Below the pieces are notes generated by a model. It did not search any database, had not been told where the DNA came from, and was given only the letters and a program-made list of their open reading frames with translations. From Octopus vulgaris (taxonomy: Eukaryota): DNA of 64,000 nucleotides. Shown here in pieces: positions 1,510 to 54,895 of this stretch (position 1 is its first letter; the number at the start of each line of letters is the position of its first letter). The stretch spans positions 215,264,001 through 215,328,000 of the forward strand of contig OX597815.1 in NCBI GenBank assembly GCA_951406725.2, read 5' to 3'. The position numbers were made by a program, and so were the translations under genes.

Positions 1510-3467
<1,958 letters not shown>

Positions 3468-11625: not shown

Positions 11626-11816
11626 ATGTTTCACCACGTAGTATCATATAGACGGTCTCTTGTGTTGATACTGTGTACGATATTGTTTTTGGAAACTCAA
11701 GCTGATTCATATACATGCAACATATGTAATTGCAATTCACTTAAATCGAATGTAGATTGTGCAAAGCGCAATCTAACATCAATTCCACAACCAATTCCGA
11801 CGAATGTTGTATATTT
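11626..11816 (+). CDS. First coding exon: signal peptide + LRR N-terminal cap
   Basis: Acceptor tttcttcttttacag ends at 11605. MFHHVVSYRRSLVLILCTILFLETQA (hydrophobic signal) is followed by DSYTCNICNCNSLKSNVDCAKRNLTSIPQPIPTNVVYL, a classic LRRNT. Donor TT|gtaag, phase 2. Confidence 0.92.
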
Positions 11817-15475: not shown

Positions 15476-15547
15476 ATATCTGTACAACAGCAACATTGCA
15501 ACCATCAAAGAAGGTACATTCACGGGTCTTTCGAATTTAAAGACATT
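15476..15547 (+). pseudogene. LRR cassette exon A1 (YLYNSNIATIKEGTFTGLSNLKTL) with defective acceptor
   Basis: 72-nt paralog of the other A exons with an intact TT|gtaag donor. The acceptor reads tataa instead of tatag. An in-frame cryptic cag lies at 15488-15490. Confidence 0.7.
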
Positions 15548-17704
15548 GTAAGTTCGTTCAGTTTCTGGATACTATTTTCCGAAAGCATTAATTGATGCTG
15601 ATATATAAGCTCACAAACGTATAAAATGTCAGACTGCACCAAACCAAATCAATTCGAATTTGTAGAATGAACACGATTTAGGAAGATACAAAGAAAATAT
15701 GAGAGAGCGAGACAATGTGAAAGAAAGAGAGAGAATTTGAGAGAGAAAGTGAAATAATAGGAAAAATATAATGTTCCTTTATTGTAGTTGCTTTGTTTCA
15801 ATTCGCATCTCAATAACTCATTTTTGTTCCCAAAATTTCAATGATTTTCATATGAATTTGTATTAGAATTGGTAACGTTTGTGAGTTTACATGTTTGCAT
15901 CAAATATTTTTAGCTGAAGTATATGTGTATGTTCATATATAAGTGTAGTTCTGTGTGAAATGTGACTATATTATTCCTTTATTTTATATTTTGCATCCTC
16001 CTCCATTTCTTATTTCAATATTCTCCTTCGTGTTTCGATATTATCATTCAACTTCGAATTTTGTCATTCACTTCACGTTATTTATGTAATAGAGATACTG
16101 AAGTGGAAGCGGAAAATATATATACGAATAATATAGTCACATACATTCTATCTGTAAACCTGAAATACTTACTGTACTTGTAAGCTGGAATATTTGGCCT
16201 GATACAATTAAACTGTTGATATATTTCTTGTAAGCGTGTGTTTTCTAATATTCTTGTGACAATGAAGCGATATGAAATAAATAATCCCTCTCACCATATT
16301 TCCACAAGGGTGAGTGGGAATATGTGTGATGTGAGTGTGCATAGCGCATTCCGTCATTGATACTATGAATATAAGAATGTGTATGAGTGCATTTGAATAT
16401 GTTAATTTCTGATTCCGTATATTCCCTGATTTTTCAGCCATGTCTTCTTGCCCAAATTTTTCGCTCTATCCTTGAATTATTTCCTGATATTTTGAGAACA
16501 TTTTCAGTTTCGTCTTCAACACGATGATTTTCAATGTGTTGTCTTCTTCTTCATATTCTTCTTCTTCTTTTTTCTTCTTCTTCTTCTTCTTCTTCTTCTT
16601 CTTCTTCTTCTTCTTCTTCTTCTTTTTCTTCTTCTACTTCTTCTTCTACTTTCTACATATTCACCTACTTCTCCTTCTCCTCCTCCTCCTTTTCTTCTTC
16701 TTATCTTCTTCTTTTTGTTATTCTCATCCTCCTCCTCCTTCTTCTTCATCTTTTTTCTTCTTCCTCCTACTTCTTCTTCCCTCCATCCTCCTCCGCCTCC
16801 TTTTTCATTCTCTTCCTTCTTCTTCTTCTTCTTCTTCTTTTTTCTTCTTCTTCTTCTGTTTCCTATTTCTTCTTCTTCTTCTATTTCTTCTTCTTCTTCT
16901 TCTTCTTCTTCTTCTACTTCTCCTCCTATTTCTCCTCCTCCTCATTCTTCTTCTTCTTCTTCTTCTCCTTCTGCCTCCTCCTCCTCCTCCTCCTAGTTCT
17001 TCTTCTTCTTCGTCTTCTTGTAATTCTTCCTCTCCCCCTCCCCTTCCTCATCCTCCTTTTTCTTCTTCTTCTTCTTCTTCTTTTTCTTCTTCTTCTTCTA
17101 CTTTCTACTTCTACTTCTAATTCTCCTCCTCCTCCTCCTTCTTCTTATCTTCTTTGTTTGTTATTCTCTTCCTCCTTCTCCTCCTCCTTGTTCATCTTCT
17201 TCTTTTTCCTGCTGTTTCTCCTTCTTCTTCTTCTTCTTCTTCTTCTTCTTCTCCTTTCTCCTCCTCTTCTTTTCGTTATTCTCTTCTTCCTTTCCTTCCT
17301 CTTCTTATTCTTCTTCTCCTCACCCTCCTCCTCCTTCTTCTACTTCTTCCCTTTCTTCCTCCTCTTTTTAATCTTCTACAACTTCTTCTACTCTACCCTC
17401 TTCTCCTCCTCCTCCTATTTTCCTCCCCCTCCTACATCTCCTTACCCTCCCCCGTCCTCATCCTTCTTCTTCTCCTCCTCCAACTCATTCTTCTACTTCT
17501 TCTCCCCCTCTTCTTTCTCATTGTCTTATTTTTCCCCTTCCCCCTCCTCCCTTTCTTCTTTGTCTTCTTCTTCTCCTCAATCTCTTTCCTGTTCCTCTTC
17601 TTGTATTATTTTCCTATAATTTTGTCCCTTTTCATAAAGAACAATATTGAATATGTTATCGCAATTCACACAATGTCAATCTAAACAATTGTTTCCTGCT
17701 TCAG

Positions 17705-17776
17705 ATATCTTTTCAACAATAACATTTCAAGGATTGAAAAAGAAATGTTTCAAGGCCTTCACAGATTACAGGAATT
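17705..17776 (+). CDS. LRR cassette exon B1 (YLFNNNISRIEKEMFQGLHRLQEL)
   Basis: ctgcttcag|A...TT|gtaag, 72 nt, phase 2-2, typical 24-aa LRR. Confidence 0.9.
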
Positions 17777-18863
17777 GTAAGTTCATTCAATGTTGTCTTT
17801 TATACATGAGGAATATACTATGTCTTTAAATTTAATATCCCCTTATTTCCATGTTTTCTCACTCTCTATTACTGTAAATCATATTCAGTTCTCATTTTCG
17901 TGTCATATTTATTTGATTGAGTGTGAACACGTCAATTACTGTCAGTTGATAATTGTCTGCATAAAAATGTTATTCCTGAAAATATATATGTGTATGTTCA
18001 TATGTATGTATGATCTGCACTATTAATATAAGTTTTAGCTACTATTTTGTTACATATTGTTCTCTTGATTCTGTGGTGCCGTGTGGTTATTTATCCACAC
18101 TTCCAACGAAATAATTTTTTGTCATTGTTGTTTTTGTTCTTCTTCTTCTTGTAATTCTCTTCCTCCCCTCCCCCTCCATCTCCTCCTTTATCTTCTTTAT
18201 GTCCTTCTTCTTGCAATTCTCCTCCTACTCATCCTCCATTTTCTTCTATTTCTTTTTCTTCTTCTTCATCGTTTTCGTCTTCTTTTCATTTTCCTCTTTT
18301 TTCTTCCTCTTTTTCGTCGTCGTCTTCTTCTTCCTCTTCTTCTTCCTTTTCTTCATCTTCTTCTTTTTCTTCTGCTTCTTCTGCTTCCTCTTCTTCTTCT
18401 TCTGCATCTTCTTCTTCTTTTTCTTCTTTTTCTTCTCTGTACTTTTTTCTTCGTCACTGGTCTCCTTTTCCATTCTTTGCCAATTATTCCTCTTATTTTC
18501 ATTTTCCTGCTCTTCCTACTCCTTCTGCTGCTGCCCCCAACTGCCCCTCCTCAGTCATCAATTCCTTTGTCCTCCTCCTAACCTCCCCACCTCTCCTCCA
18601 CCTCCGCCTCTTCCATCTCCTCCTGAATACTCCTACTTCTACTTTTTCTTTTTCTTATTCTACTTCTTCATATTCTTCTTCTTCTTCTTCTTCTTCTTCT
18701 TCTTCTTCTTCTCTTCCTCCTTTCTTCTTCTACTTCTTCTTCTTCTTCTTCTTCTTCGTTATGTTTCTTCTATTTCTTCCTTTCATTCTGAAGTCACAGT
18801 GTTTGATATCGTATCACAAATATTTTCCATATAATCTATTTTACTCCTTCTTTACTGCTATAG

Positions 18864-18935
18864 AGGTCTTGGTGACAACAACATTGCAACCATCAAAGAA
18901 GGTACATTCACGGGTCTTTCGAATTTAAAGACATT
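18864..18935 (+). CDS. LRR cassette exon A2 (GLGDNNIATIKEGTFTGLSNLKTL)
   Basis: gctatag|A...TT|gtaag, 72 nt, phase 2-2. Confidence 0.9.
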
Positions 18936-20425
18936 GTAAGTTCGTTCAGTTTCTGGATACTATTTTCCGAAAGCATTAATTGATGCTGATATATAAGCTC
19001 ACAAACGTATAAAATGTCAGACTGCACCAAACCAAATCAATTCGAATTTGTAGAATGAACACGATTTAGGAAGATACAAAGAAAATATGAGAGAGCGAGA
19101 CAATGTGAAAGAAAGAGAGAGAATTTGAGAGAGAAAGTGAAATAATAGGAAAAATATAATGTTCCTTTATTGTAGTTGCTTTGTTTCAATTCGCATCTCA
19201 ATAACTCATTTTTGTTCCCAAAATTTCAATGATTTTCATATGAATTTGTATTAGAATTGGTAACGTTTGTGAGTTTACATGTTTGCATCAAATATTTTTA
19301 GCTGAAGTATATGTGTATGTTCATATATAAGTGTAGTTCTGTGTGAAATGTGACTATATTATTCCTTTATTTTATATTTTGCATCCTCCTCCATTTCTTA
19401 TTTCAATATTCTCCTTCGTGTTTCGATATTATCATTCAACTTCGAATTTTGTCATTCACTTCACGTTATTTATGTAATAGAGATACTGAAGTGGAAGCGG
19501 AAAATATATATACGAATAATATAGTCACATACATTCTATCTGTAAACCTGAAATACTTACTGTACTTGTAAGCTGGAATATTTGGCCTGATACAATTAAA
19601 CTGCTGATATATTTCTTGTAAGCGTGTGTTTTCTAAAATTTTGTGACAATGAAGCGATATGAAATAAATAATCTCTCTCACCATATTTCCACAAGGGTGA
19701 GTGGGAATATGTGTGATGTGAGTGTGCATAGCGCATTCCGTCGTTGATACTATGAATATAATGTGCATGAGTGCATTTCTGATGTTGATTTCTGATTCCG
19801 TATATTCCCTGATTTTTCAGCCATGTCTTCTCGCCCAAATTTTTCGCTCTATCCTTGAATTATTTCCTGATATTTTGAGAACATTTTCAGTTTCGTCTTG
19901 AACACCCCCTCCCCCTCCTGTTTTTTTCTTCTTCATATTCTTCTTCTTCTTCTTCTACGTCTTCTTCTTCTTCTTTTTTCTTCTTCTTCTTCTTCTTCTT
20001 CTTCTGCTTCTTCTTCCTTTTCCTCTTCTTCTTCTCCTTTTTCTTCCTCTTCTTTTTCTTCCACTTCTTCTTCGTCTCTTCCCCCTCCTCCGCCTCTTTT
20101 TAATCTTCATCACCCTTCTTCATCTACTCTTCCCTCTAGTCCTCCTCCTCCTCCTCCTATTTTCCTCCCCCTCCTACATATCCTTGTCCTTCTCCGTCCT
20201 CAAACTTCTTCTTCTCCTAACCTCCTCCTCGTCCTCTAACTGCTCCTTCTTCTACTTCTCTCCCCCTCCTCTTCTTCCTTGTCTTATTCTTTTCCTCAAT
20301 CTCTTTCCTGTTCCTCTTCTTGTATTATTTTCCTATAAATTTGTCCCTTTTCATAAAGAACAATATTGAATATGTTATCGCAATTCACGCTATGTCAATC
20401 TAACCAATATTTTTTCCTGCTTCAG

Positions 20426-20497
20426 ATCTCTTCGCAACAATAAAATTTCAAGGATTGAAAAAGAGATGTTTGAAGGCCTTCACAACTTAGAGATATT
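20426..20497 (+). CDS. LRR cassette exon B2 (SLRNNKISRIEKEMFEGLHNLEIL)
   Basis: ctgcttcag|A...TT|gtaag, 72 nt, phase 2-2. Confidence 0.9.
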
Positions 20498-22079
20498 GTA
20501 AGTTCTTTCAAAGTTGTCGTTTATACATGAGGAATATTTAATATCTTTAAATTTAATATCCCCTAATTTCCATATTTTCTCACTCTCTATTACTGTAAAT
20601 CATATTCAGTTCTCATATTCGTGTTATATTTATTTGATTGAGTGTGAACATGTCAATTACTGTCAGTTGATAATTGTCTGCATAAAAATGTTATTCCTGA
20701 AAATATATATGTGTATGTTCATATGTATGTATGTATCTGCACTATTAATATAAGTTTTAGCTCCTATTTTCTTACTCATTGTTTTCTTGATTCTGTGGTG
20801 CCGTGTGGTTATTTATCCACACTTCCAACGAAATAATTTTTTGTCATTGTTGTTGTAGTTTTTGTTCTTCTTCATCTTCTTCTACTTCTTCTTCTTCTTT
20901 TTCTTCTCCTTCTCCTTCTTTTCCTTTTCTTCTTCTTCTTCTTCTTGACCTCCTACTCCTTCTCCTCCTTTTACTTCTTCTTCTTCTATTTCTTCTTTTT
21001 GTTCTTTTTGTTCTCCTTCTTCTTTTCCTTCTTCTTTTTCTTTTCTTCTTCTTCTTCTTCTTCTCTTCTCCTTCTTTTCCTTTTCTCCTTCTTCTTCTTC
21101 TTCTTCTTCTTCTACTTCTTCTTCTTCTCGTCCTTCTTTTCTTCTTCTTCTTCTTCTTCTTCTTCTTCTTCTTCTTCTTCTTCTTCTTCTTCTTCTTCTT
21201 CTTGGCCTCCTACTCCTTCTCCTCCTTTTACTTCTTCTTCTTCTATTTCTTCTTTTTGTTCTTTTTGTTCTCCTTCTTCTTTTCCTTCTTCTTTTTCTTT
21301 TCTTCTTCTTCTTCTTCTTCTTCTCTCCTTCTTTTCCTTTTCTCCTTCTTCTTCTTCTTCTTCTTCTTCTTCTTCTTCTTCTTCTTTTTCTTCTTCTTCT
21401 TCTTCTTCTTCTTCTTCTCCTTCTCCTTCTTTTCCTTTTCTTCTTCTTCTTCTTCTTCTTCTTCTTCTTCTTCTTCTTCTTCTTCTTCTACTTCTCCTCC
21501 TTCTCCTCCTTCTACTTCTTCTTCTTCTATTTCTTCTTTTTGTTCTTTTTGTTCTTCTTCTTCTTCTTCTTCTTCTTCTTCTTCTTCTTCTTCTTCTTCT
21601 TCTTCTTCTTTTTCTTCTTCTTCTTCTTCTTCTTCTTCTTCTTCTTCTTCTTCTTCTTCTTCTTCTTCTTCTTCTTCTTCTTCTTCTTCTTCTTCTTCTT
21701 CTTTTTCGTCTTCTTCTTCGAGTTCTTATTCTTCTTCTTCCCCGTCTTCTTCTTCTTCTACATCTTCTTCTTCTTCTTCTTCTTCTTCTTCTTCTTCTTC
21801 TTCTTCTTCTTCTTCTTCTTCTTTTTCTTCTTCTTCTTCTTCTTCTTCTTCTACATCTTCTTCTTCTTCTTCTTCTTCTTCTTCTTCTTCTTCTTCTTTT
21901 TCGTCTTCTTCTTCGAGTTCTTATTCTTCTTCCCCGTCTTCTTCTTCTTCTACATCCTCTTCCTCTTCTTCTTCTTCTTCTTCTTTTTCGTCTTCTTCTT
22001 CTTCTTCTTCTTTTTCTTCTTCTTCTTCTTTTTCGTCTTCTTCTTCTTCTTCTTCTTCTTCTTTTTCTTCTTCTTCTTC

Positions 22080-22111
<32 letters not shown>

Positions 22112-23849
22112 CTTTCGTTCTCCTTCTTCTTCTTCTTCTTCATCTCCTTCTACTTCTCCTTCTTCTTCTTCTTCTTCTTCTTCGTCTTTTTCTTCTTCTT
22201 CTTCTTCTTCTTCTTCTTCTTCTTCTTCTTCTTCTTCTGCCTCCTTCCTGCGCCTCCTCCTCCTTCTTTTTCTTCTTCTTCTCCTTCTTTATCTTCTTCT
22301 TCTTCTTCTTCTTCTTCGTCTTCTTCTGCTTCTTCTTTTCTTCTATTCTTCTTGTTCTCCTCCTCCCTCTACCCCTTCATCTTTTCTTTTTCTAATGTTT
22401 TCTCTTCTCCTCCTTCTTCTTCATTTTCTCATTGTAATTCTCTTCCCAATGCTCCTCCTTTTTCTTCTTGTAATTCTCGTCCTCCCCTCCCCGTATCCCC
22501 TCCTTCTTTTTTCTTCTTCTTCTTCTTCTCTTCTTCTTCTTCGTCTGCTTCTCCTTCTTCTTCTTCTTCTACTTCTCCTTGTCTTTCTCCCTCTTTATTT
22601 TCTTCTCCTTCTTTTACTTCTTTTTGTCTTCTTCTACTTCTTCTTTTTCTTGTCCTTCTTCTTCTTCTTCTTCTTCTTCTTCTTCTTCTTCTTCTTCTTC
22701 TCCTCCTTCTTCTTCTTCTTCTTCTTCTTCTTCTCCTTCTTCTTCTTCTTCTTCTCCTCCCCGTCTTCCTTCTTCTTTTTCTTTTTCTTATTCTTCTCTT
22801 TCATCTTTCTTCATTTTTCTTCTTCTACTTCTTCTCTTCTAAATTTTACTTCTTAACTTCTTATCCTCCTCCTCCTCTTTCTTCTATTTATCTTCTTTTT
22901 GTTATTCTCTTCCTCCACCTCCACCTCCTCCTTCTTCTACTTCTTTTTTCTTCTTCTTCTTCTTCTTCTTCTTCTTCTTCTTCTTCCTTCTTCCTTCTTC
23001 TTCTTTTCTTCTCCTTCTACTTCTTCGTCTTCTTTTTGTTCCTATTCTTCTTCTTCTTCTTCTTCTTCTTCTACTACTACTTCTAATTCTACTTCTTCTA
23101 CTCTCCCTTCTTCTTCTTCTTCGTTTTCTTCGTCTTCTTCTTCTCCTCCACCTCCTCCTTCTTCTTCTTCTTCTTCTTCTTCTTCTTCTTCTTCTTCTTG
23201 TAATTCTTCCTCTCCCATTCCCCCTCCTCATCCTCCTACTTTTTCTTCTTCTTCATTTTCTTCTCTTACTTCTACTTTCTACTTCTTCACCTACTTCTCC
23301 TCCTCCTCCTCCACCTCGTTCTTCTTCTTGTCTTCTTTTTTTGTTATTCTCTTCCTTCTTCTCCTTTTCCACCTCCTTCTTCATCTCCTTCTTCTTTTTT
23401 CTCCATCTTCTTCTCATTTTTCCTCTGGTACTTCTTTTTGTTCTTCTTCTTTTCCTTCCGCTTCTTCTTCGTCTCATCACTCTCCTCCTCCTCTTTTTAA
23501 TAATTTACATCTTTTTCTTCTACTCTACCCTCTGCTCCTCCTCCTATTTCCCCCACCCCTCCTGCATCTCCTTGTCCTCCCCCGTCCTCATCCTTGTTTT
23601 ATTCCTCCCCTCCTCCTCCTCCAAATCATCCTTCTTCTACTTCTTCTACACCATCCTCTTCTTCCTTGTCTTCTACTTTTCTCCTTCCCCTCCACCCCTT
23701 CTTTGGCTTCTTCTTCTCCTCATTCTCTTTCCTGTTACTCTTCTTGTATTATTTTCCTATAATTTTGTCCCTTTTCATAAAGAACAATATTGAATATGTT
23801 ATCGCAATTCATGCTATGTCAATCTAACCAATATTGTTTCCTGCTTCAG

Positions 23850-23921
23850 ATCTCTTACATCCAATAAAATTTCAAGGATTGAAAAAGAGATGTTTGAAGG
23901 CCTTCACAACTTAGAGATATT
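23850..23921 (+). CDS. LRR cassette exon B3 (SLTSNKISRIEKEMFEGLHNLEIL)
   Basis: ctgcttcag|A...TT|gtaag, 72 nt, phase 2-2. Confidence 0.9.
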
Positions 23922-24701
23922 GTAAGTTCTTTCAAAGTTGTCGTTTATACACGAGGAATATTCAATATCATTAAATTTAATATCCCCTTATTTCCATATT
24001 TTCTCACTCTCTATTACTGCAAATCATATTCAGTTGTCATATTCGTGTTATATTTATTTGATTGAGTGTGAACATGTCAATTACTGTCAGTTGATAATTG
24101 TCTGCATAAAAATGTTATTCCTGAAAATATATATGTGTATGTTCATATGTATGCATGTATCTGCACTATTAATATAAGTTTTAGCTACTATTTTGTTACA
24201 CATTGTTCTGTTGATTCTGTGGTGCCGTGTGGTTATTTATCCACACTTCCACCGAAATAAATTTTTTGTTATTGTTGTTGTAGTTTTTGTTCTTCTTCTT
24301 CTTCTTCTTCTTCTTCTTCTTCTCCTTCACCTTCTTTTCCTTTCCTTCTTCTTTGCCTCCTCCTCCTCCTCCTCCTTCTTCTTCATCTTCTTCTCCTCCT
24401 CCTTCTTCTTCATCTTTTCTTCTACCCCTTCGACTCCTCTTCATCCTTCTTCTTCTTCTTCTTCTTCTCCTTCTTCTTCTTCTTCTTCTCCTTCTTCTTC
24501 TTCTCCTTCTCCTTCTTCTTCTTCTAACCCTTCTTTTTTTCTTCTTCTCCTCCTTCTCCTTCTTCTTCTTTATCTTATTCTTCTTCTTCTTCTTCGTTAT
24601 CTTTCTTCTTTTTCTTCCTTTCATTCTGAAGTCACAGTGTTTGATGTTGTATCACAATTATTTTCCATATAATCTACTTTACTCTTTCTTTACTGCTTTA
24701 G

Positions 24702-24770
24702 AAATCTACAATGGAACAACATTGCAACCATCAAAGGTGTATTCACGGGGCTTTCGAATTTAAAGACATT
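24702..24770 (+). CDS. LRR cassette exon A3 (NLQWNNIATIK-GVFTGLSNLKTL), 69 nt
   Basis: gctttag|A...TT|gtaag; in-frame loss of one codon (GAA) relative to the other A exons. Confidence 0.88.
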
Positions 24771-26199
24771 GTAAGTTCGTTCAGTTTCTGGATACTAATT
24801 TCTGAAAGTAATAATTGATGCTGATATATAAGCTCACAAACGTATAAAATTTCAGACTGCACCAAACAAAATCAATTCGAATTTGTAGCATGAACACGCT
24901 TTAGGAAGATACAAGTAGAATAGGAGAGAGCGAGACAATGTGAAAGAAGAATTTGAGAGAGAAAGTGAATTAATAGGAAAAAATAATGTTCCTTTATTGT
25001 AGCTGCTTTGTTTCAATTCGCATCTCAATAACTCATTTTTGATTCCCCAAATTTCAATGATTTTGATATGAATTTGTATTAGAAATGGTAACGTTTGTGA
25101 GTTTATATGTTTGCATCAAATATTTTTAGCTGAAGTATGTGTGTATGTTCATATATAAGTGTAGTTCTGTGTGAAATGTGACTATATTATTCCATTATTT
25201 TATATTTTGCCTCCTCCTCCATTTCTTATTTCAATATTCTCCTTCGTGTTTCGATATTATCATTCAACTTTGAATTTTGTCATTCACTTCACGTTATTTA
25301 TGTAATAGAGCAACTGAAGTGGAAGCGGAAAATATATACTCGAATAATATAGTCACATACATTCTATCTGTATACTTACTGTACTTGTAAGCTGGAATAT
25401 TTGGTCTGATACAATTAAACTGTTGATATATTTCTTGTAAGCGTGTGTTTTCTAAAATTTTGTGACAATAGCGATATGAAATAAATAATCTTTCTCAGCA
25501 TATTTCCACGAGGGTAAGTTGGAATATATGTGATGTGAGTGTGCATAGCGCATTCCGTCGTTGATACTATGAATATAAGAATGCGTATTAGTGCATTTGA
25601 ATATGTTGATTTCTGATTCCTTATATTCCCTGATTTTTCAGCCATGTCTTCTTGCCCAAATTTTTCGCTCTATCCTTGAATTATTTCCTGATATTTTAAG
25701 AACATTTTCAGTTTCGTCTTCAACACGATGATTTTCAATGTGTTTTCTTCTTCTTCTTCTTCTTCTACGTCTTCTTCTTCTTTTTTCTTCTTCTTCTTCT
25801 TCTTCTTCTGTTGCTGCTTCTTCTACTTCTTCTTCTTCTTCTTCTACTTCTTCTCCTTCCTCTTCTTCTTCTTCTTCTTCTTCTTCTTCTTCTTCTTCTT
25901 CTTCTTCTACTTTTTCTTTTCTTCTTCTTTTTCTTCTCCTTCTCCTCACCCTACTTCTCCTTCTTCTACTTCTTCTTTTCCCTCCTCCTGTTTTTTAATC
26001 TTCTACACCTTCTTCAGCTCTACTCTCTGATCCTCCTCCTCCTCTTTTTCTAATTCTTCTTGTTCTTCTCTTAATTCTTCTTCTCCTCCTTCATCTCCTT
26101 CTCCTTCTTCTTCTTCTCCTTCTTCTCCTTCTACGTCTCCTCCTCGTCTTCCTCCATCTTTTTCTTTTCCTTCTTCTCTTTCTATAACTTCTTTTTCTT

Positions 26200-26230
<31 letters not shown>

Positions 26231-26596
26231 TCCTACTTCTTCTTCCTCTTCACTCTACTCCCCCTCCTTTTTCCTCCTCTGCCTTCTTCTACTTCTTCTT
26301 TTTCTTCTTCTTACTACTTTTTTTTCTTCCTATTCTCCTTCTTTTACTTCTACTCCTCATACTTCTTCCTCTTCTCTTCCTCTTTCTCCTTCTTCTACCT
26401 CTTCTTCTTCTTCTTCTTCCTCCTTCTCTTTCTTCTTCTTCTTCTTCTTCTTCTTCTTCTTCTTCTTCTTCTTCTTCTACTTCTTCTCCTTCTTCTTTTC
26501 TTCTTCTATTTCTCCTCCTTGTCTTCCTCTTTTTTTCTTTTTTCTTCTTCTTCTCTTTCTTCTACTTCATTTTCTTCCACTTCTTCTTTTTCTTCC

Positions 26597-26627
<31 letters not shown>

Positions 26628-27167
26628 CTTCTTCTTCTTCTACTTTCTATTCTTCATCTACTTCTCCTCCTACTTCTCTTTCCTCTTCTAACCTCCTTTT
26701 TGTTATTCTCCTCCTTTTCCACATACTCCTCATTCTTCTTCTTCTTCTTCTTCTTCTTCTTCTTCTTCTTCTTCTTCTTCTTCTTCTTCTTCTTCTTCTT
26801 CTTCTTCTTCTTCTTCTGTTGCTGCTTCTTCTTTCCTCTTCTAACCTCCTTTTCCACATTCTCCTCCTTTTCCACTTCTTCTTCTTCCTCTTCTTCTTCT
26901 CTTCTTCTTCTTCTTCTTCTTCTTCTTCTTCCCTCTTCTTTTTCTTCTTCTTATCCTCCTCCTCCTCCTCAGACTTTTTCTTCTTCTTCTTCTTTCTCTT
27001 CTTCTTCTTCTTCTTCTTCTTTCTCTTCTTCTTCTTCTTCTTCTTCTTCTTCTTCTTCTACGTTATCTTTCTTCTTTATCTTCCTTTCATTCTGAAGTCA
27101 CAGTGTTTGATGTCGTATCCGAAATATTTTCCATATAATCTATTTTACTCTTTCTTTACTGCTATAG

Positions 27168-27239
27168 AGATCTTGGTTACAACAATATTGCAAACATCAA
27201 AGAAGGTACATTCACGGGGCTTCCGAATTTAAACTACTT
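27168..27239 (+). CDS. LRR cassette exon A4 (DLGYNNIANIKEGTFTGLPNLNYL)
   Basis: gctatag|A...TT|gtaag, 72 nt, phase 2-2. Confidence 0.9.
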
Positions 27240-27547
27240 GTAAGTTCGTTCAATTTCTTGATACTATTATCCGAGAGTAATAATTGATAATGATATATAA
27301 GCTCACAAATGTATAAAATTTCAGACTACTTCTTCTTCTTCTTTTTTTCCTTCTTCTTCTTCTTCTTCTTCTTCTTCTTCTTCTTCTTCTTCTTCATATT
27401 ATTCTTCTCCTACTTCTTCCTCTTCTACTTCTCCTCCTCGTCATCCTCCATCTTTTTTTTTCTTCTCTTTCTACAACATTTTTTTAACTTATTTTTTTTC
27501 TTCTTTTTCTTCTACTCTCCTTCTTCTTTTTCTTCTTCTTTTTCTTC

Positions 27548-27579
<32 letters not shown>

Positions 27580-28050
27580 CTTCTTCTTCTTCTTCTTCTT
27601 CTCCTTCTTTCCTTCTTCTTCTTCTTCTTCTTCTACTTCTCCTCGTCTTCCACCTTCTTTTTCTTTTTCTTCTTCTCCTTTTTCTTCATTACTTCTACTT
27701 CTTTTTCTTCTTCAATTTTCTAATTCTTCATCTACAGCTCCTATTCCTCCTCCTTCTTCTTCTCATCTTCTTCTTTTTGTTTTTGTCCTCAGCCTCCACA
27801 TCCTCCTTATCCTTCTTCTTCTTCTTCTTCTTCTTCTTCTTCTTCTTCTTCTTCTTCTTCTTCTTCTCCTTCTTCTTTTTCTTCTACTTTTTCGACTCCT
27901 CTTCATCCTTCTTCGTCTTCTTCTTCTTCTTCTTCTTCTTCTTCGTTATGTTTCTTCTTTTTCTTCCTTTCATTCTGAAGTCACAGTGTTTGATGTCGTA
28001 TCGCAAATATTTTCTATATAATCTACTTTACTCTTTCTTTACTGCTATAG

Positions 28051-28122
28051 AGATCTGCAATGGAACAACATTGCAACCTTCGAAGAAGGTGTATTCACAG
28101 GGCTTTCGAATTTAAAGACATT
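28051..28122 (+). CDS. LRR cassette exon A5 (DLQWNNIATFEEGVFTGLSNLKTL)
   Basis: gctatag|A...TT|gtaag, 72 nt, phase 2-2. Confidence 0.9.
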
Positions 28123-29711
28123 GTAAGTTCGTTCAGTTTCTTGATTCTATTTTCCGAAAGCATTACCCTCTGCTCCTCCTCCTCCTCTTTTTCTTCTTCT
28201 AATTCTTCTTCTTCTCATTCTTTTTCTCCTTCTTCTTCTCCTTCTTCTTCTTCTTCTTCTTCTACTTCTCCTCCTCGTTTTCCTCCATCTTTTTCTTTTA
28301 TTCTTCTCTGTCTACTACTTCTTTTTCTTCTTCTTTTTCTTCTTCCCCTTCATTCTCCTCCTTCTCCATTTTTCTCCTCTTCCTTCATCTTCTTTTTTTT
28401 TCTTCTTTTTCTTCTACCTCTCCTCCTTCTTCCTATTCTTCTTCTTCTTCTTCTTCTACTTGTTATTCTTCTTCTCCTTCTTCTCCTTCTCCTTCTTCTT
28501 CTACTTCTCCTCCTCGTCTTCGTCCTTCTTTTTCTTTTTCTTCTTCTTCTCTTTCTTCTACTTCATTTTTCTTCTTCTGCTTCTTCTTCTTTTTCTTCTT
28601 CTTCTCCTTCTTCTTCTTCTTCTTCTTCTTCTACTTTCTATTTTTCACCTTCTTCTTTTCCTCCTCCTCTTTCTTCTTCTCATCTTCTTTTTGCTATTCT
28701 CCTCCTCCTCCACATCCTCCTCCTTCTTCATCTTTTTCTTTTCTTTTTACTTCTTTCCCTTCATCCTCCTCCTCCTCCTTTTGCCTCCTCTTCCTTCTTC
28801 TTGTTCTTGTTCTTCTTCCTATTCTTCTTCTTGTTCTTGTTCTTGTTCTTGTTCTTCTACTTTTTCTTCTTCTGTTTCTCCTCCTCATTTTTCTTCTTCT
28901 TCTCCTCCTCCTCCTCCATCGTCTTCTTCTTCTTCTTGTAATTCTTCCTTTCCACCTGCCCCTCCTCATTTTTCTTCTTCTTCTTTTTCTCCTCCTACTT
29001 CTACATTCTACTTCTTGTTCTCTTCCTCCTTCTTCCTCTCCTTCTTCTTCTTTTTGCTGTTCTTTTTTTTATTGTAATGCTCCTCCTCCCCCTCCCACGT
29101 CCATCTCCTTTTCATTCTTCATCTTCTTCATCCCTCGTCATCCTCCTTCTTTTTCTTTTTCTTCTTTTTCTTCCTCTTGTTCTTCTTTCTCCTAACCCTC
29201 CTCCTCTTTCTTCTACTTCTAGTTTTTCTTCCTCTTGTTTTTAATATTCTACCTCTTGTACTCAACGCTCTTCTTCTCTTTTTTCTTCTTCTTCTTTTCC
29301 TTCCTCTTCTTCTTCTCCTCACCCTCATCCTTCTACTTCCTCTTTTTCTTCCTCCTCTTTTTAATCTTCTACATCTTCTTCTTCTAGTCTACTCTCTGCT
29401 CCTCCTTCTATTTTCCTCCCCCTCCAGCATCTTCTGGTCCTCTTCCGTCTTCAACCTTCTTCTTCGCCATCCTCCTCCTCCTCCTCCTCCAACTCCTCCT
29501 TTTTCTACCTCTTCTCCCCCTCCTCTTCCTCCTTGTCTTCTTTTCTCCTTCCCCTCCTCCTCTTCTTCTTTGTCTTCTTCTTCTCCTCAATCTCTTTCCT
29601 GTTCCTCTTGTATTATTTTCCTATAATTTTGTCCCATTTCATAAAGAACAATATTGAATATGTTATCGCAATTCACACTATGTCAATCTAAACAATTGTT
29701 TCCTGCTTCAG

Positions 29712-29783
29712 ATATCTTTTCAACAATAACATTTCAAGGATTGAAAAAGAAATGTTTCAAGGCCTTCACAGCTTACAGAAATT
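29712..29783 (+). CDS. LRR cassette exon B4 (YLFNNNISRIEKEMFQGLHSLQKL)
   Basis: ctgcttcag|A...TT|gtaag, 72 nt, phase 2-2. Confidence 0.9.
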
Positions 29784-31364
29784 GTAAGTTCTTTCAATGT
29801 TGTCGTTTATACATGAGGAATATACTATGTCTTTAAATTTAATATCCCCTTATTTCCATGTTTTCTCACTCTCTAATACAGTAAATCATATTCAGTTCTC
29901 ATATTCGTGTTATATTTATTTGATTGAGTCTGAACATGTCAATGACTGTCAATTTATAATTGTCTGCATAAAGATGTTATTCCTGAAAATATATGTGTAT
30001 GTATGTATGTATCTGCACTATTAATATAAGTTTTAGCTACTATTTTGTTACACATTATTCTCTTGATTCTGTGGTGCCGTGTGGTTATTTATCCACACTT
30101 CCTCCCAAATAAATTTCTTGTTATTGTTGTTGTTGTTGTTGTTTTTGTTCTTCTTCTTGTAATTCTCCTCCTCCACCTCCCTCTCCCCTCCTCCTCCTCC
30201 TTTTTCTTCTATTTCTTTTTCTTCTTCTTCATCGTTTTCTTCTTCCACTTCTTCCTCTTCATCTTCTTCTCCTTCTTTTTCTTCTTCTTTTTATTCTCCG
30301 TCTTCTGCTTCTTCTTATTCTTCTTATTCGTCATCTTCTACTTCTTTTTCTTCTTCTTTTTTTCTTTTTCGTCTCTGTACTTTTTGCTTCGTCACTGATC
30401 TCCCTCTTTTCTATTCTCTGCCAATTATTCCTCTTATTTTCATTCTCCTGCTTTTCCTGCTCCTTCTGCTGCTACCCACAGCTGCCCCCATTCTTCTTCC
30501 TTTTCTTCTTCTTCTTCTTCTTCTTCTTCTTCTTCTTCTTCTTCTTCTTCTTCTTCTTCTTCTTCTTCTTCTATCTTCTTCTTCTTCTTCTTCTTCTTCT
30601 TCTTCTTCTTCTTCTTCTATATCTTCTTGTTCTATATCTTCTTCTTCTTCTATATCTTCTTCTTCTTTATCTTCTTCTTCATTTTCTTCTTGTAACTCTC
30701 TTCCTTACTTTTTATTCTTGTAATCTCCTACTCCCCCTCCCCCTCCTTTTTTATTATTCTCCTCCTCATCCTTCTTCAACTTCTTTTTCTTCTTCTACTT
30801 CTTGTTCTTCTCCTTCACCTCCTCCTCCTCCTCCTCCTTCTTCCTCATCTTCTTTTTCCTCTTCTTTTTCTTCTTCTTCTTGTAATTCTCCTTCTCCCCC
30901 GCTCCCTCGTCATCCTCCTGTTTCTTTTATTTCTTTTTGTTCCTCTTGTTCTTCTTTCTCCTAACCCTCCTCCTCTTTCTTCTACTTCTACTTTTTCTTC
31001 CTCCTGTTTTTAATATTCTACCTCTTCTTGTACTCTACGCTCTGCTTCTCCTCCACCTCCTATTTTCCTCTCCTCCTGCAACTTCTTGTCCTCCCACGTA
31101 CTCAAACTTCTTCTTCTCCTCCTCTCCTCCTCCTCATCCAACGCCTTCTTCTATTTCTTCTCCCCCATCCTCTTCCTCCTTGTCTTCTTCTTTTCCCCTT
31201 CCCCCTCCTCCCCTTCTTCCTTGTCTTCTTCTCCTCAATCTCTTTCCTGTTCCTCTTCTTGTATTATTTTCCTGTAATTTTGTCCTTTTTCATAAAGAAC
31301 AATATTGAATATGTTATCGCAATTCACACTATGTCAATCTAACCAATACTGTTTCCTGCTTCAG

Positions 31365-31436
31365 AGATCTTTTCGGCAATAAAATTTCAAGGATTGAAAA
31401 AGAGATGTTTCAAGACCTTCACAACTTACAGTATCT
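31365..31436 (+). CDS. LRR cassette exon B5 (DLFGNKISRIEKEMFQDLHNLQYL)
   Basis: ctgcttcag|A...CT|gtaag, 72 nt, phase 2-2. Confidence 0.9.
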
Positions 31437-32577
31437 GTAAGTTCTTTCAATGTTGTCGTTTATACATGAGGAATATACTGTCTTTAAATTTAATATCCCC
31501 TTATTTCCATATTTTCTCACTCTCTATTACTGTAAATCATATTCAGTTCTCATATTCGTGTTATATTTATATGATTGAGTCTGAACATGTCAATGACTGT
31601 CAGTTGATAATTGTCTGCATAAAAATGTTATTCCTGAAAATATATATGTGTATGTTCATATGTATGTATGTATCTGCACTATTAATATAAGTTTTAGCTA
31701 CTATTTTGTTACACATTGTTCTCTTGATTCTGTGGTGCCGTGTGGTTATTTATCCACACTTCCACCGAAAAAAATTTTTTGTCATTGTTCTTTTTGTTGT
31801 TTTTTAGTTACTCTTCTTCTTCTTGTAAGGCTCCTCCTCCCCTCTCCCCCTCCTCCTCCTCCTCCTCCTCCTCCTCCTCCTCCTCCTCCTCCTCCTCCTC
31901 CTCCTCCTCCTCCTCCCCTCCCCTCCTCCTCCTCCTCCTCCTCCTTTTTCTTCTATTTCGTCTTTTTCTTTTTCTCCTTCCACTTCTTCTTCTTCATAAT
32001 TTTCTTCTTCTTCTTCTTCTTCTTCTTCTTCTTTTTCTTTTTTTTCTCTGTACCTTCTGCTTCGTCACTGGTCTCCCTCTTTTCCATACTCTGCCAATTC
32101 TTCCTCTTATTTACATTCTCCTGGTCTTTCTTTTCCTTCTACTGCTACTCCCAGCTGTCCCTCCTCAGTCATCCCTTCCTTTGTCCTACTCCTAACCTCC
32201 CCACCTCCCCTCCTCCTGCCTCCCCTACCCCCTCCCTAATTCTCCTTCTAATCCTCTTTTTCTTCTTCTTCTTCTACTTCTTCTTCTTCTTCTTCTTCTC
32301 CTTCTCCTTCTTCTTCTCCTTCTTCTTCTTCTACTCCTTTCTTCTTCTACTTCTTCTTCTTCTTCTTCTTCTCCTCTTCCTCTTCCTTCTTCTTCTTCTT
32401 CTTCTTCTTCGTCTTCTTCTTCTTCTCCTCTTCCTCTTCCTTTCTTCTTCTTCTTCTTCTTTTTCTTCTTCGTTATCTTTCTTCTTTTTCTTCCTTTCAT
32501 TCTGAAGTCACAGTGTTTCATGTTGCATCACAAATATTTTCCATATAATCTATTTTACTCTTTCTTTACTGCTCTAG

Positions 32578-32649
32578 AGATATTGCTTTCAACAAAATTG
32601 CAGCCCTCAAAGAAGGTGTATTCACTGTGCTTTCGAATTTAGAGACATT
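32578..32649 (+). CDS. LRR cassette exon A6 (DIAFNKIAALKEGVFTVLSNLETL)
   Basis: gctctag|A...TT|gtaagt, 72 nt, phase 2-2. Confidence 0.9.
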
Positions 32650-36364: not shown

Positions 36365-36436
36365 ATATTTGAACAACAACCCAATAGAAAAATATGAAGA
36401 TGACGCTTTCTTATTCCTCCCCAGTATAGTTAATAT
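36365..36436 (+). CDS. Unique terminal LRR exon (YLNNNPIEKYEDDAFLFLPSIVNI)
   Basis: tctctttttcag|A...AT|gtaag, 72 nt, phase 2-2; flanks unrelated to the A/B cassettes. Confidence 0.88.
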
Positions 36437-38543: not shown

Positions 38544-38692
38544 TTTTTTTTTTTCTTCTTTCAAATTTTCTTCCATTTCTTGCCGAGTGTCTTCCCGACT
38601 CCTAGGGCAAAGAAACTCATAGTGTATATTGGTAGGCCATTAAACCAAACTCAGTAGTTCGTTCATTTTTTTTTTTTTTTTTTTAAAGTTAA

Positions 38693-38765
<73 letters not shown>

Positions 38766-42349: not shown

Positions 42350-42507
42350 TTACCTCGAAAACAATAACCTTATGAAGTGTGGATGTCACTTGCCAGCCTT
42401 CGTTAAGTATATTAAAAAAGTCTATAACAGAAATCTGGATGTCTCTGGCACGTGTCAGGAAGGCTCAGGGAAACGAATACCTATACTGGATTATTCGCAA
42501 TGTCAAA
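42350..42507 (+). CDS. LRR C-terminal cap exon (YLENNNLMKCGCHLPAFVKYIKKVYNRNLDVSGTCQEGSGKRIPILDYSQCQ)
   Basis: ttattacag|T...A|gtaagt, phase 2-1; N-x(3-4)-CxC...C...C LRRCT pattern. Confidence 0.88.
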
Positions 42508-47535: not shown

Positions 47536-47621
47536 ATTACTCGTTATATCAACGGAATTTACAGTGTCAAACATGTTCAGGAATGATGTGCAATGAAGTG
47601 ACAAGCTGTCCAAGAGCAGAG
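47536..47621 (+). CDS. Exon: first half of Ly6/uPAR-like domain (YSLYQRNLQCQTCSGMMCNEVTSCPRAE)
   Basis: ttctgtag|AT...GAG|gtaaac, phase 1-0; LxCxxC start typical of LU domains. Confidence 0.85.
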
Positions 47622-49580
47622 GTAAACTGGAATATTACTTTCTTCCTTTTCGTTAAAATATATCCACAACCGTCACTCGAAAGCCATTAAGTCCACATAG
47701 ATTGTACTATGCTTTCGCTAGTTTTTTATGTACCTGCGTAGACATACACACACCCTATCGATCTTCTTATTCATGACTCAATGGGACGAGAAGGATGTGA
47801 CGATTGAAGAGAGAAATAGATGAACATCACTAGGTTGGGACACATTTCATTTGATTAGACTGGAACAAAGTGAATTGAAGTGCCTTGTTCAAGGACACAA
47901 CGTTCTTCCCTGTCCAGGAATCCCTATTCAAGAAACGAACACACGAACTTAGAGTGACCTTTCTCCGAAAAACATGGCTGTCCTTAGAGTAGGATGCATG
48001 AATGTATGTGGCCTTAAGTCAACTTGGAATCAAGGTTCCTTGTCGAATGACTTCGGGTCACCAACCTTAGAGGGGTAACTGGAAGTCGGACCTGGCCCTA
48101 CCAGCTCGCAAACATTACAGGGAGCGGATTGAATAAGTTAAGAAGCAAATGATAGTTTTCTTTCGTCTGGTGGCCATAGCAAAAGAGGTTGTTTGATGTA
48201 CGAGGTTATGAAATATTCGGAACAGATTAAATCTTCCCTCACATCAAGTAGTACAATAAGCTCTCCAGAACATAATAGGTGGGGGTCATATTGTTTCATA
48301 GAAAGGTAAAACCTATAACTTTAAAACGCAGCTAAAACACAATTAAAAAATGTCAGGTATATCTCTGAATACACAGTTGTACATTGGTGAAAGAAACACA
48401 AGAGAAACAATAAAAGACACCGGTAATGACACAGATCAATGCTTCACATTAACTGATCTACGAGAATATAGGAGAGTAGAGCGTGACATAAGAGCATGGC
48501 TGCATTCTGTTGTCTGTTTTATTGTCTGTTCTCATCTCAGACCTTTCTGTTTTCTTGAAGCTGAGTTAGCTTATTTAATGATTCATTCATTTGCAATCAC
48601 CGACTCCATTGGCTTTTTTGAAGACGGCAGCCTACCGACACTATCATTGGTTATTTCTTCATGACGTCCTCACTCAGTTTGGGAGATCTTTCTAAAAATT
48701 TTCCGTGATTGGAAGAAACGTGTTTCAATTCCAAGCTAAGGCAATGCATATCTTATTTCTAACTTCAATGTCTACATTTTGATTGCTTTTATTATTGTTA
48801 GGTGTTTGCGATTATTAATTGCGTTTTCATGATGGATTCTTTTCTTTAAATATTCTTCTCCATTTCTGATGTTTTTCGCTTTCAGAATGTCCCTTATTAA
48901 GTTTACAAGTCGTTGATGTTTTCTCTTCAAATTTTATACTAATATACCGTATTTTCATATAAAATATACTTGCAAAATAAAATGAAGTTTCTCTTGTGTT
49001 CGTTTTATGTATTTTCTGTTTTATTTGTTTGGACTGAGGAGTTCAAACTGGCAATTTTATTTCATTATCATCTTTGGGTAAAGGCATATTAGTTTCTGTT
49101 GTTGGTGAGTTTTGTACGCATGATTTTCCGTAAATTTTATATGAAAAATTCCTCTTGAGCATTCCTCCAGTAAGAAGAAATTTTAGAGAATTGATACATC
49201 TTTATTGGGATAATTTGACCTATTTTAAGTTGGGCGATGGGTGACAGTGCGATGCGATTTTGATACAGACCGTGATCCGATGGCCATATCTACTTGTGAT
49301 CAGAGAGCTCGGGACACTGTAAGCATTTAAAACATGATTTTTGAATACTAAATAGCAATGAATTTTACAGAAGTTTACTTATGCTGTTAACTTACAACAA
49401 TTCGGCAACTCTTTTACGGTTTCATTTATTGCTTTTGGGTATTTTAAAGCAATGATTAAACTTACTTGCATGTTAAACATCCCCAGTGGTGTTGCTTCTG
49501 TTGTTGTTGCTGTAATTTGCCGTAATCGTACTAATGAATATTTTGGTTTTAGTGTATAATTTTCATATCTATTATTACAG

Positions 49581-49764
49581 CCTGTATGCCGATTCGCCAT
49601 ATCAATGAACGGTGTTAAACTGAAGACTGAAAGGTCCTGCAGCACATACAGAAAATGTGTTGAAGCTATGAGAAACAATAACCTTACATGCAATAAACGG
49701 ACCAATGGCAAGTTTTGTGTTGGTTGTTGCGTTGGACACTTATGTAACAAGAATGATTTCATTG
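49581..49764 (+). CDS. Exon: second half of Ly6/uPAR-like domain (PVCRFAISMNGVKLKTERSCSTYRKCVEAMRNNNLTCNKRTNGKFCVGCCVGHLCNKNDFI)
   Basis: ttattacag|CCT...G|gtaagt, phase 0-1; ends in CxxCCxxxxCN, the LU/three-finger signature. Confidence 0.88.
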
Positions 49765-50913: not shown

Positions 50914-50996
50914 GCTGGACCAAATCCTTCGTATTTCGTTTGATTTTTAAGAAGTTCAACGAATATAAAATCCCTGCTGAGAACATATCAAGAGCC
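50914..50996 (+). CDS. Exon: SEA-like domain part 1 (GWTKSFVFRLIFKKFNEYKIPAENISRA)
   Basis: tccatag|GC...GCC|gtgagt, phase 1-0, fits both neighbours. Alternating hydrophobic beta-strand followed by a helix. The SEA label is an inference. Confidence 0.75.
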
Positions 50997-51332
50997 GTGA
51001 GTAGATATCTGCCCTCTCTCTCTCTCTCTTTCTCCGCACACAGACGCGCGTGCGCGCACATACACACACATACACACACACACACATGCATATTTTATAG
51101 AAGAAATGTGAAACGTCAAATAAAAAGTGAGGTTTCATGAAATTCAGACAATCAACTCCATTTACTGATAGTAAACTATTACATAAAAGTTTCTTTTTTA
51201 ACTTACTGAATTTTTGCTGGTCAATAAAAACACTGTTCTATCCACTATTTTGTCTTAATATATTCCGTGATATAATTTCCGATTCAGACAGTAAATAAAA
51301 TCCTACTCAAATATTCACTAATCTTGTGTTTA

Positions 51333-51407
<75 letters not shown>

Positions 51408-51562
51408 GAACATCTGTAATCACACTCTTCCCTTTGGTAATATTTTTCTTCTCTCAACATTTTCGATTTCCTTTCTGCCAAAGAGATATGCTCGGAACAT
51501 TAAAAACCCTTTCATTTCCCCCACTTTACCGAGTGTCAAGCTAATATATTTATATATAATTA

Positions 51563-51815
51563 TATTCTCAAACGCAGGATAATGCTAATATTATAGCATG
51601 AACAGGATAAACTATTCACCTGTTGCCGAAAACTCTGTCGGTGGCCAGTTTATGCGTCTTATAAAGCTAGATGTATATAGCCTAAATTTGCAGAAGTATT
51701 TGTATGGGGTGTGAGTTGTAGTCACATAGCTGGCCGCCGACAGATTTTTCTGCAAATTATGGATATTTCAACCGGTTCACGTTATATCATTAGCATTATC
51801 CTGCGTTTCAGAATA
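51563..51815. mobile_element. MITE-like fold-back element
   Basis: tattctcaaacgcaggataatgctaat pairs with attagcattatcctgcgtttcagaata (26 of 27 nt); inner tctgtcggtggccag pairs with ctggccgccgacaga. Confidence 0.8.
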
Positions 51816-51923
51816 AAATTATTTCTTTATTTTTCAATACATCTCAACGCTTTTAAATCAAACTTTGTTTCTTGAATTTAATGTATGTATATATATATAT
51901 ACATACACATCCGGCTTTTGCAG

Positions 51924-51976
51924 ATGGAGCATGACCTTTCAACCGTGACGGGAACATTTAGAGTTGAAGACTGTGG
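51924..51976 (+). CDS. Exon: SEA-like domain part 2 (MEHDLSTVTGTFRVEDCG)
   Basis: cttttgcag|ATG...GG|gtaagc, phase 0-2, fits the chain. Confidence 0.75.
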
Positions 51977-52424
51977 GTAAGCAAATGCTTCTAACACATT
52001 TATTCAAATTTATTTGGTTTTGTTCCAAACATTCGATTTTATTGCATGTATTATACATCACAATAATCAACAGTGTTGTTCTTGTGACCCACAATATACT
52101 AATTAATACATTCAATGAAATGTTTAAGTGTTTTATCAATGTTTTATTATACGAAGGACAAACAAACCCATATAAAGATACAGAGAGAACTGTATATATA
52201 TATATACATACACAGTCAAAAATTGTGAAGCATGACTGTCACCACTACTACATGAACCTGAAGATTGCAGAATTTAATGTATGAAAGTACTAGTTCAATC
52301 AGAATGAACATTTAACATTCTATTATTTTATTTTATTTTATTATATTATATTATATTATCTTATAATATATCATTATAAGATTGTAAATAAAACGTAAAA
52401 ATCAGACAAGGTTGGAATTCCTTT

Positions 52425-52483
<59 letters not shown>

Positions 52484-52505
52484 CATATATACATATACAT
52501 ACATG

Positions 52506-52553
<48 letters not shown>

Positions 52554-52789
52554 CGCATTGAGTCGAAACAGTGGTAGCTGAAGAAGGGGAATGTTCCTTG
52601 TATTGTTTTTCTTGCACTCTGTTTTTTCGTTGTTGAAAAAAGTCCGTTTCCTTGTTTTATTTTATGTTTTCGTTTCTCGTTGTGTTCTACGTTTATTTGT
52701 GGTGTCCTGTACTCATATATGCATGTATATACATATAGATGTAGGTATGTACATATATGTATGTTTTATTTATTAAATTGTTGTATATA

Positions 52790-52835
<46 letters not shown>

Positions 52836-53287
52836 CATATGCATACACACATATATATATACACACATATATATACACACATATATGGGTGTGTATATAA
52901 ATAAATTGAGGTGGGTATCGGCAATTTGAAACCAACAAGGAAATAATTCACAGTCACTAAGTGTGAAAAGAGTGCAGTGAGCACCAGCATTATTAGAAAT
53001 ATTAGTCATAGACTCCTTAGCCACAAAAAGACATATGGTCTGTTTGCATTGACAGTGGGGAGAACATTCCCCACGGTAAGCCAGATGGATTAGATTAGCA
53101 TGGCGATTTCTTATAGGAAGTTAATACTCATCAGCAATGCTCACTCCATTACGGCTGATGGAGGCTAACTCACGCCTCTCAGTATCATTGAGAATGCCAT
53201 AAGAATGAGTGATTGATTTCACAAAATGGCAATGTGAAGGTTATAAAATATTTAAGGTGGCTAACACGCAATTTAAAACCAACCGGG

Positions 53288-53367
<80 letters not shown>

Positions 53368-54725: not shown

Positions 54726-54895
54726 TATATATATTTATATATATACGGTATATATATAGCGGTATATATATACGGTATATATATAGCGGTATATATATAT
54801 ATCAATGTATGTATACTTCTATCTATCTAGATAGATAGATAGCTACATACATGCATACATACCGACATACATGTATGTATTTATTTTTATTTCAG

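Follow-up and report, generated by a model that had tools for sequence, protein, structure and literature searches.

Probable diversifying selection at four beta-strand codons of leucine-rich-repeat exon cassettes in an octopus gene family derived from adhesion G-protein-coupled receptors

In the type I genes of the brown-algal ROCO family, each 72-nt exon encodes one leucine-rich repeat (LRR), the introns are in phase 2, some exons are dead or lie on the opposite strand, and positive selection has been found at exon sites 15, 17, 19, and 20 (PMC3341825). These genes are alternatively spliced, and the available text of a second source reports no somatic recombination in them (PMC11378527). Here, we describe an array of LRR exons, which we call cassettes, in a 64,000-nt stretch of the Octopus vulgaris genome (GCA_951406725.2, contig OX597815.1, forward-strand positions 215,264,001 to 215,328,000; hereafter, the window). 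The octopus array likewise consists of 72-nt LRR exons in a single phase, with putatively dead members and, in a paralog on C5, inverted ones, and it likewise bears a signal of selection at four positions in the beta-strand of the repeat. Counted on the algal consensus, sites 15, 17, 19, and 20 are x3, x5, x7, and x8 of the LxxLxLxxN motif, the same four as in octopus. The two systems differ in that the algal proteins are LRR-ROC-COR GTPases, whereas the octopus proteins join extracellular LRRs to Ly6-like and HRM domains and, in some members, to GAIN and seven-transmembrane (7TM) domains. No ROC-COR GTPase domain was matched by Pfam in P0005, a database protein (Octopus vulgaris by its source name) that is a 100% match to the Ly6-like exon of the window. 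A further difference is that the octopus intron falls inside the strand. The brown-algal ROCO genes are the closest working analogue of the octopus array, with no shared ancestry implied.

Three other systems share part of this design. VLR genes in the germline are not complete and undergo somatic assembly by cytidine deaminases (PMC13428168). The octopus array resembles them in having LRR modules that vary at concave-strand positions and in exchanging sequence among cassettes, but it is part of a complete gene in which cassettes can be spliced as exons, and the cassette variation is present in the germline assembly; it is not a VLR system, and the likeness is one of analogy. Glycoprotein-hormone receptor and LGR genes also have one LRR per exon and phase 2 introns (PMC11378527), an exon structure that the octopus family shares along with the placing of extracellular LRRs on a G-protein-coupled receptor (GPCR). 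The octopus repeats differ in being recently duplicated and hypervariable. Glycoprotein-hormone receptors and LGRs belong to the rhodopsin class; their repeats are fixed and their ligands conserved. Finally, arthropod Dscam has tandem exon cassettes and offers a parallel for possible combinatorial splicing. Its cassettes are immunoglobulin exons, of which one is chosen per cluster, whereas octopus models include many cassettes in series, with skipping.

An octopus-specific expansion of adhesion GPCRs with GPS and 7TM regions, group 3, has been described, in which 5 of 22 sequences contain LRRs and in which positive selection was seen at the level of branches, with no selected sites (PMC6408891). 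Two paralogs of the window gene, P0031 and P0006, likewise combine LRRs with GPS and 7tm_2 domains; the window gene differs in having no GAIN, GPS, or 7TM region, and exon cassettes are undescribed in the available text of that study. A literature search that included octopus and cephalopod terms, and that covered few subscription journals and no supplements, returned no account of the cassettes, although the supplements of PMC6408891 may list members of this family. We think it likely that the window gene belongs to an adhesion-GPCR-derived family whose hypervariable LRR exons are produced by selection and exchange and whose products recognize variable ligands from outside. The evolutionary mechanism is the part of this explanation in which we have the most confidence, and we hold it to be very probably right.

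All 11 cassettes of the window were located between positions 15476 and 32649. Each exon is 72 nt long except A3, which is 69 nt, and every one is in phase 2, with the intron placed inside the second Leu codon of LxxLxLxxN. Ten of the 11 have AG/GT splice sites and allow in-frame splicing between the LRRNT and LRRCT regions. In window coordinates, they are as follows.

15476..15547, + strand: A1 cassette, likely inactive (acceptor AA, Asn to Ser)
17705..17776, + strand: B1 LRR exon, 72 nt, phase 2
18864..18935, + strand: A2 LRR exon
20426..20497, + strand: B2 LRR exon
23850..23921, + strand: B3 LRR exon
24702..24770, + strand: A3 LRR exon, 69 nt (in frame, one codon shorter)
27168..27239, + strand: A4 LRR exon
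28051..28122, + strand: A5 LRR exon
29712..29783, + strand: B4 LRR exon, 2 nt from B1, missing in the database model P0005
31365..31436, + strand: B5 LRR exon
32578..32649, + strand: A6 LRR exon

Among these cassettes, the exon ends are the most diverse: pairwise diversity at nt 2-13 is 0.51 in A and 0.35 in B, and at nt 65-72 it is 0.21 and 0.34. For the middle of the exon, the values are 0.11 (A) and 0.06 (B), and those for the intron upstream are 0.07 and 0.06. An earlier sequence-only reading of this DNA had proposed that substitutions are concentrated on the concave-face residues of the repeat, and had suggested comparing exon nt 2-13 with intron; the x zone does exceed the intron in both classes. 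Its lists of residues at LxxN and at the preceding xx match the cassettes, as do its observations that B2 and B3 are alike except for 5 of the 6 nt of two adjacent codons, which are codons 3-4 (exon nt 8-12), and that B1 and B4 are 2 nt apart, both changes being non-synonymous. One of these two changes (codon 20) falls outside the strand x positions. The proposed concentration holds for x3, x5, x7, and x8 and fails for the first x of LxxL (codon 22), which is mildly variable and without positive selection. The claim that the concave face is rich in aromatic residues and Asp was too strong: across the 134 intact cassettes described below, enrichment at x5, x7, and x8 is moderate (F/W/Y 23%, D 12%, G 15%).

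We extended the comparison to arrays elsewhere in the 2.8-Gb genome by fetching 600 kb in 19 regions, which together with the window gave 149 A/B matches. Fifteen of these were broken or irregular and were dropped, including A1 and A3 of the window, leaving 134 intact cassettes at 2 to 21 per fetched array; one 20-kb region (R18) yielded no cassette. The main tests used 86 A and 20 B cassettes, with 28 cassettes from three more distant genes on contig C30 left out. Some arrays were fetched in part, and a genome search listed 158 A-type candidates. In the main set, codons 1, 3, 4, and 23, which correspond to x5, x7, x8, and x3, carry 12-13 distinct residues each in A and 5-9 in B, with nucleotide diversity (pi) of 0.35-0.74 at their first and second positions, and Leu2, Asn5, and Leu21 are nearly invariant. 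We counted nonsynonymous (pN) and synonymous (pS) differences in disjoint cassette pairs (43 A, 10 B) chosen by intron distance alone. In B, x-site pN was 0.246, against an x-site pS of 0.031, a pS of 0.020 elsewhere, and an intron divergence of 0.036. In A, x-site pN was 0.418, x-site pS 0.319, pS elsewhere 0.132, pS over all sites about 0.16-0.17, and intron divergence 0.027.

Site models (M1a/M2a and M7/M8), a kind of test that the sequence-only reading had proposed, flagged the same four codons. The estimated ratio of nonsynonymous to synonymous rates (omega) was 13-18 in B, with twice the log-likelihood difference (2dL) at 47-61 on two trees, and 3.5 in A, with 2dL of 79. The nine intact 72-nt exons of the window by themselves gave a 2dL of 29.5 and flagged codons 3, 4, and 23. 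The single-copy C exon, compared across 12 genes, gave an omega of about 11 at codons 3 and 4 (2dL 15); since this exon is not tandem, tandem repetition is not required for the pattern. Neutral simulations in which every codon followed its own tree, equivalent to free recombination, never reached a 2dL of 47 (0 of 40; maximum 11.6). Elsewhere in the protein, LRRNT codons had a pN of 0.110 against a pS of 0.053 (10 genes), while the Ly6-like exon was conserved (pN 0.010, pS 0.016; 12 loci), and exposed residues on the convex side of the repeat stay conserved. Pair counts, site models, and the recombination control thus support diversifying selection at the strand x positions.

RNA from the family is spliced. 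In RNA run X17, depth was 4842 over the bin containing A2 and 17-96 in adjacent intron bins, and RNA contigs from X17 and X6 join exon ends to exon starts. One X6 joint leads from a B2/B3-like exon end to a start that, among the 149 cassettes, is unique to A3 of the window, which supports splicing of the window gene, of an allele, or of an unfetched paralog. RNA contigs mix paralogs at 90% likeness, and the kinds of RNA runs were guessed. No joint with the window's own B1-A2 or A2-B2 starts appeared among the listed RNA contigs, which proves nothing. Seven of 12 checked junction starts were absent from the 149 fetched cassettes; alleles, or paralogs outside the fetched regions, can account for these. 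For two genes of the sister species O. sinensis, we compared 13 and 7 RefSeq isoform models, which differ in their LRR exons and show cassette skipping; these are models, and some of them look chimeric.

What these proteins bind is less certain than how they vary. We lean slightly, by analogy, toward ligands that are mostly microbial or parasite molecules. The same evolutionary mechanism could instead yield a diversified code for recognizing self, whether by arms or skin, in allorecognition, between gametes, or in the wiring of neurons, beside the protocadherin expansion; we regard this as unlikely. The expression data speak for self: group 3 adhesion GPCRs are expressed, and show enrichment, in the axial nerve cord, suckers, and skin, with expression also in gills, and the authors favor a neural role and propose one in wiring (PMC6408891). 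Of published expression data, those on group 3 come nearest to the window gene. A single-sequence structure model of P0005 forms an LRR solenoid over residues 1-200, at moderate to good confidence, and is unreliable beyond residue 210; it aligns with the LRR domain of the Nogo receptor at about 2.7 A over about 205 columns, and a fold shared with the Nogo receptor and LRRTM-type neural LRR proteins would suit self-recognition, as would the cassette skipping in the RefSeq models. A sequence search of the PDB with P0009 matched only general LRR proteins. Against a self ligand stand the dead cassettes, the copies that are probably secreted, and the omega exceeding 10 at the binding face, all of which would suit an arms race more than a developmental code, an argument that leaves allorecognition and gamete recognition standing.

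If a mutagenic or templated process were directed at the ends of the exons, whether hypermutation or a VLR-like somatic assembly of cassettes, it would generate the variation whether or not selection acts; the sequence-only reading had raised a targeted short-tract process as one option. We consider this improbable. It would account for the two- and three-base differences at hot codons in close pairs (78 of 151 in A and 10 of 19 in B, versus 9 of 150 and 0 of 11 elsewhere), for A exon silent sites being more variable than the flanking introns, and for the RNA junction starts that the fetched cassettes lack. However, at the third bases of codons 1 and 5, which are silent, variation is no greater than in intron (pi 0.07 in A and 0.00 in B at codon 1; 0.02 and 0.00 at codon 5), and linkage breaks within tens of bases in introns as well, so that a mutator aimed at the x zone is unsupported. 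Hot codons also show no enrichment of transitions, which are outnumbered by transversions (145:87 and 20:9). These three observations led us to set aside hypermutation aimed at the exon x zone. Motifs are common to two species, the non-tandem C exon shows the same pattern, and a search of the genome for APOBEC_N matched none of 4 candidates, which is weak evidence.

Short-tract exchange among cassettes appears real, and it appears to be general rather than targeted. All four gametes were present in 83 of 91 pairs of A sites, and linkage (r2) was about 0.03 at distances of 11-70 nt in exon and intron alike. For 9 of the 10 most frequent codon 3-4 hexamers, the silent Leu2 base goes together with the hexamer in different genes, and where close A pairs differ by more than one base at a hot codon, both codons were present in other cassettes in 49 of 58 cases. 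Cassette A1 offers a local example. It is probably dead, because it has lost both the AG acceptor (AA in its place) and the framework Asn (now Ser), and it differs from A2 at 8 sites in exon nt 2-15 and at none in nt 16-72; upstream, 11 of 115 bases differ, and downstream, there are 10 mismatches over 953 nt (98.4% alike). Judged from this pattern, A1 is a mosaic with a breakpoint within the exon near nt 16. The A flanks have a pi of mostly 0.02-0.07 over 900 nt, below the silent-site diversity of A exons (about 0.16-0.17), as would be expected if flanks are homogenized and old variants are kept by selection. The variants are partly old, since 6 of 41 LRR units of O. sinensis-named proteins are identical to units in this cassette set and 14 of 38 of their x-triplets recur here (null 13%, p 0.0002).

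Long TTC/TCC-rich tracts lie between the cassette modules (window 15080-33740) and are largely limited to the array of LRR exons, in which they may make misalignment and exchange easier. In the paralogous region C5:141880859-141891920 (L077-L078), four cassettes stand as an inverted mirror copy that adjoins a 100-N assembly gap, and they are either a real inversion or an assembly artefact.

A neutral artefact, from relaxed constraint on exposed residues combined with recombination or from assembly errors, is very improbable and already largely refuted. In its favor, TTC repeats abound in the region, 15 of the 149 cassette matches are irregular or broken, and exposed residues tolerate change. 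Against it, relaxed constraint caps pN at the neutral rate, whereas B has an x-site pN roughly 7 times that of intron, the signal does not arise in the recombination control, convex exposed residues are conserved, and a second species, O. sinensis, has the same pattern.

Several points, in addition to the expression of group 3, weigh against our interpretation. The high x-site pS of A pairs, relative to pS elsewhere, makes the hot-codon pN/pS marginal (Fisher p 0.044), and Leu codon 2 has, in A, a bimodal third base (pi 0.50). The site models were run with in-house code, scaled fixed branch lengths, and naive empirical Bayes assignment, and not in PAML, and recombination raised the rate of false positives, with 5 of 40 neutral simulations passing the nominal 5% level. 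The trend of linkage with distance was not significant (p 0.46 and 0.07), and no donor of the B3 codon pair was found among the 134 cassettes. The placement of x3, x5, x7, and x8, which would lie on the concave face, comes from the LRR consensus (PMC3138743, PMC3341825) and not from coordinates.

On the explanation we prefer, that of a selected and exchanging receptor family, point mutations at the four x codons would be retained by diversifying selection for new binding surfaces, and germline ectopic gene conversion and unequal crossing-over would homogenize the cassette flanks. Through the same exchange, whole exons and short blocks of variants would be relocated inside a gene or from one gene to another. 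Skipping of exons would add LRR combinations, because each beta-strand is divided by an intron, and a skip brings x3 of one exon together with x5-x8 of a different one. Copies that bear a 7TM region would signal, and copies that lack one, including the window gene, would act as secreted binders.

The window gene runs from a predicted signal peptide and LRRNT through the 11 A/B exons and a final LRR exon, C, to LRRCT-like, Ly6-like, unclassified, and HRM modules. Its Pfam matches for LRRNT, Ly6, and HRM are all under the Pfam cut-offs.

11626..11816, + strand: first coding exon found, predicted signal peptide and LRRNT (E 2.7e-4, below the curated cut-off)
36365..36436, + strand: final single-copy LRR exon (C)
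42350..42507, + strand: LRRCT-like exon, by cysteine pattern and position, without a Pfam match
47536..49764, + strand: Ly6/uPAR-like cysteine domain in two exons, 47536-47621 and 49581-49764 (UPAR_LY6_2 E 0.25, weak)
50914..55050, + strand: unclassified module of about 100 aa in three exons, 50914-50996, 51924-51976, and 54896-55050
59822..61500, + strand: hormone-receptor (HRM) domain in two exons, 59822-59936 and 61358-61500, below the curated cut-off

The stop codon lies about 16 kb beyond the window, at C2:215343941, and the 3' end of the gene (C2:215334995-215343941) consists of a partial repeat of the unclassified module and the last exon. Several paralogs end alike, and the C-terminus encoded by the last exon resembles that of the full-length receptor P0031, which suggests that GAIN-7TM was lost internally from the window gene.

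The window gene falls outside the definition of an adhesion GPCR, as it has no GAIN/GPS and no 7TM. With all 124 GPS candidates scored, no GPS match lay on its contig, C2, beyond 152.6 Mb, P0005 has neither a 7tm_2 match nor a hydrophobic 19-mer, and tblastn of two 7TM paralogs across the next 40 kb found no 7TM. Nevertheless, LRR, Ly6-like, and HRM domains are common to this gene and its 7TM-bearing paralogs (the Ly6-like exon is 92% identical to that of P0006, and P0005 and P0031 have HRM matches that fall under the curated cut-off), and on these grounds, we infer that it descends from the ectodomain of an adhesion GPCR. Its product is predicted to be secreted, probably, because the GAIN/7TM part is missing, and the family seems to have both membrane and secreted forms. 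Across the genome, the Ly6-like exon has 65 matches and GPS has 64, and 4 of 18 fetched arrays have a same-strand GPS within about 60 kb downstream. Most family members cluster on three small contigs, C29-C31, and dozens of more distant paralogs lie on C29. Another more distant member, with a Ly6-like exon 75% identical, is found 30 kb upstream of the window (C2:215233404). The window locus is less than 0.3 Mb from its contig end, and a paralog on C14 is at a contig start. One database octopus protein, P0101, joins LRRs of this family to ankyrin repeats, a possible fusion or mis-annotation.

The window also holds presumed mobile elements. On the two sides of the array, two inverted copies, 95-99% alike, stand at window 107-3508 and 38668-41089, which we take to be a non-LTR retroelement. 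Elements at 7605-9345 and 56388-59192 have long inverted ends and reverse-transcriptase/endonuclease-like frames and are, we presume, Penelope-like; a 326-nt near-perfect palindrome occupies 7848-8500.

A comparative review names FREPs for molluscs and, in its available text, no diversified receptor for cephalopods (PMC13428168). The octopus LRR family is a concrete candidate for one, with fast-selected binding residues, modular exons, and signaling as well as probably secreted forms. More tentatively, and with considerable doubt, octopuses may have a variable-receptor system of their own, comprising dozens of membrane (adhesion GPCR) and secreted LRR proteins, in which germline shuffling and cell-specific splicing would combine some 150 or more hypervariable exons into binding faces. 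Such proteins would make up an anticipatory repertoire, immune or self/non-self, that has converged with VLR, Dscam, and algal ROCO genes. Our results add site-level selection to a GPCR expansion in which the earlier study found none (PMC6408891), and they indicate that the brown-algal solution recurs, with the four positions unchanged, on a scaffold unrelated to that of the algae. Whether the diversity of octopus receptors serves immunity, self-recognition, or wiring thereby becomes testable.

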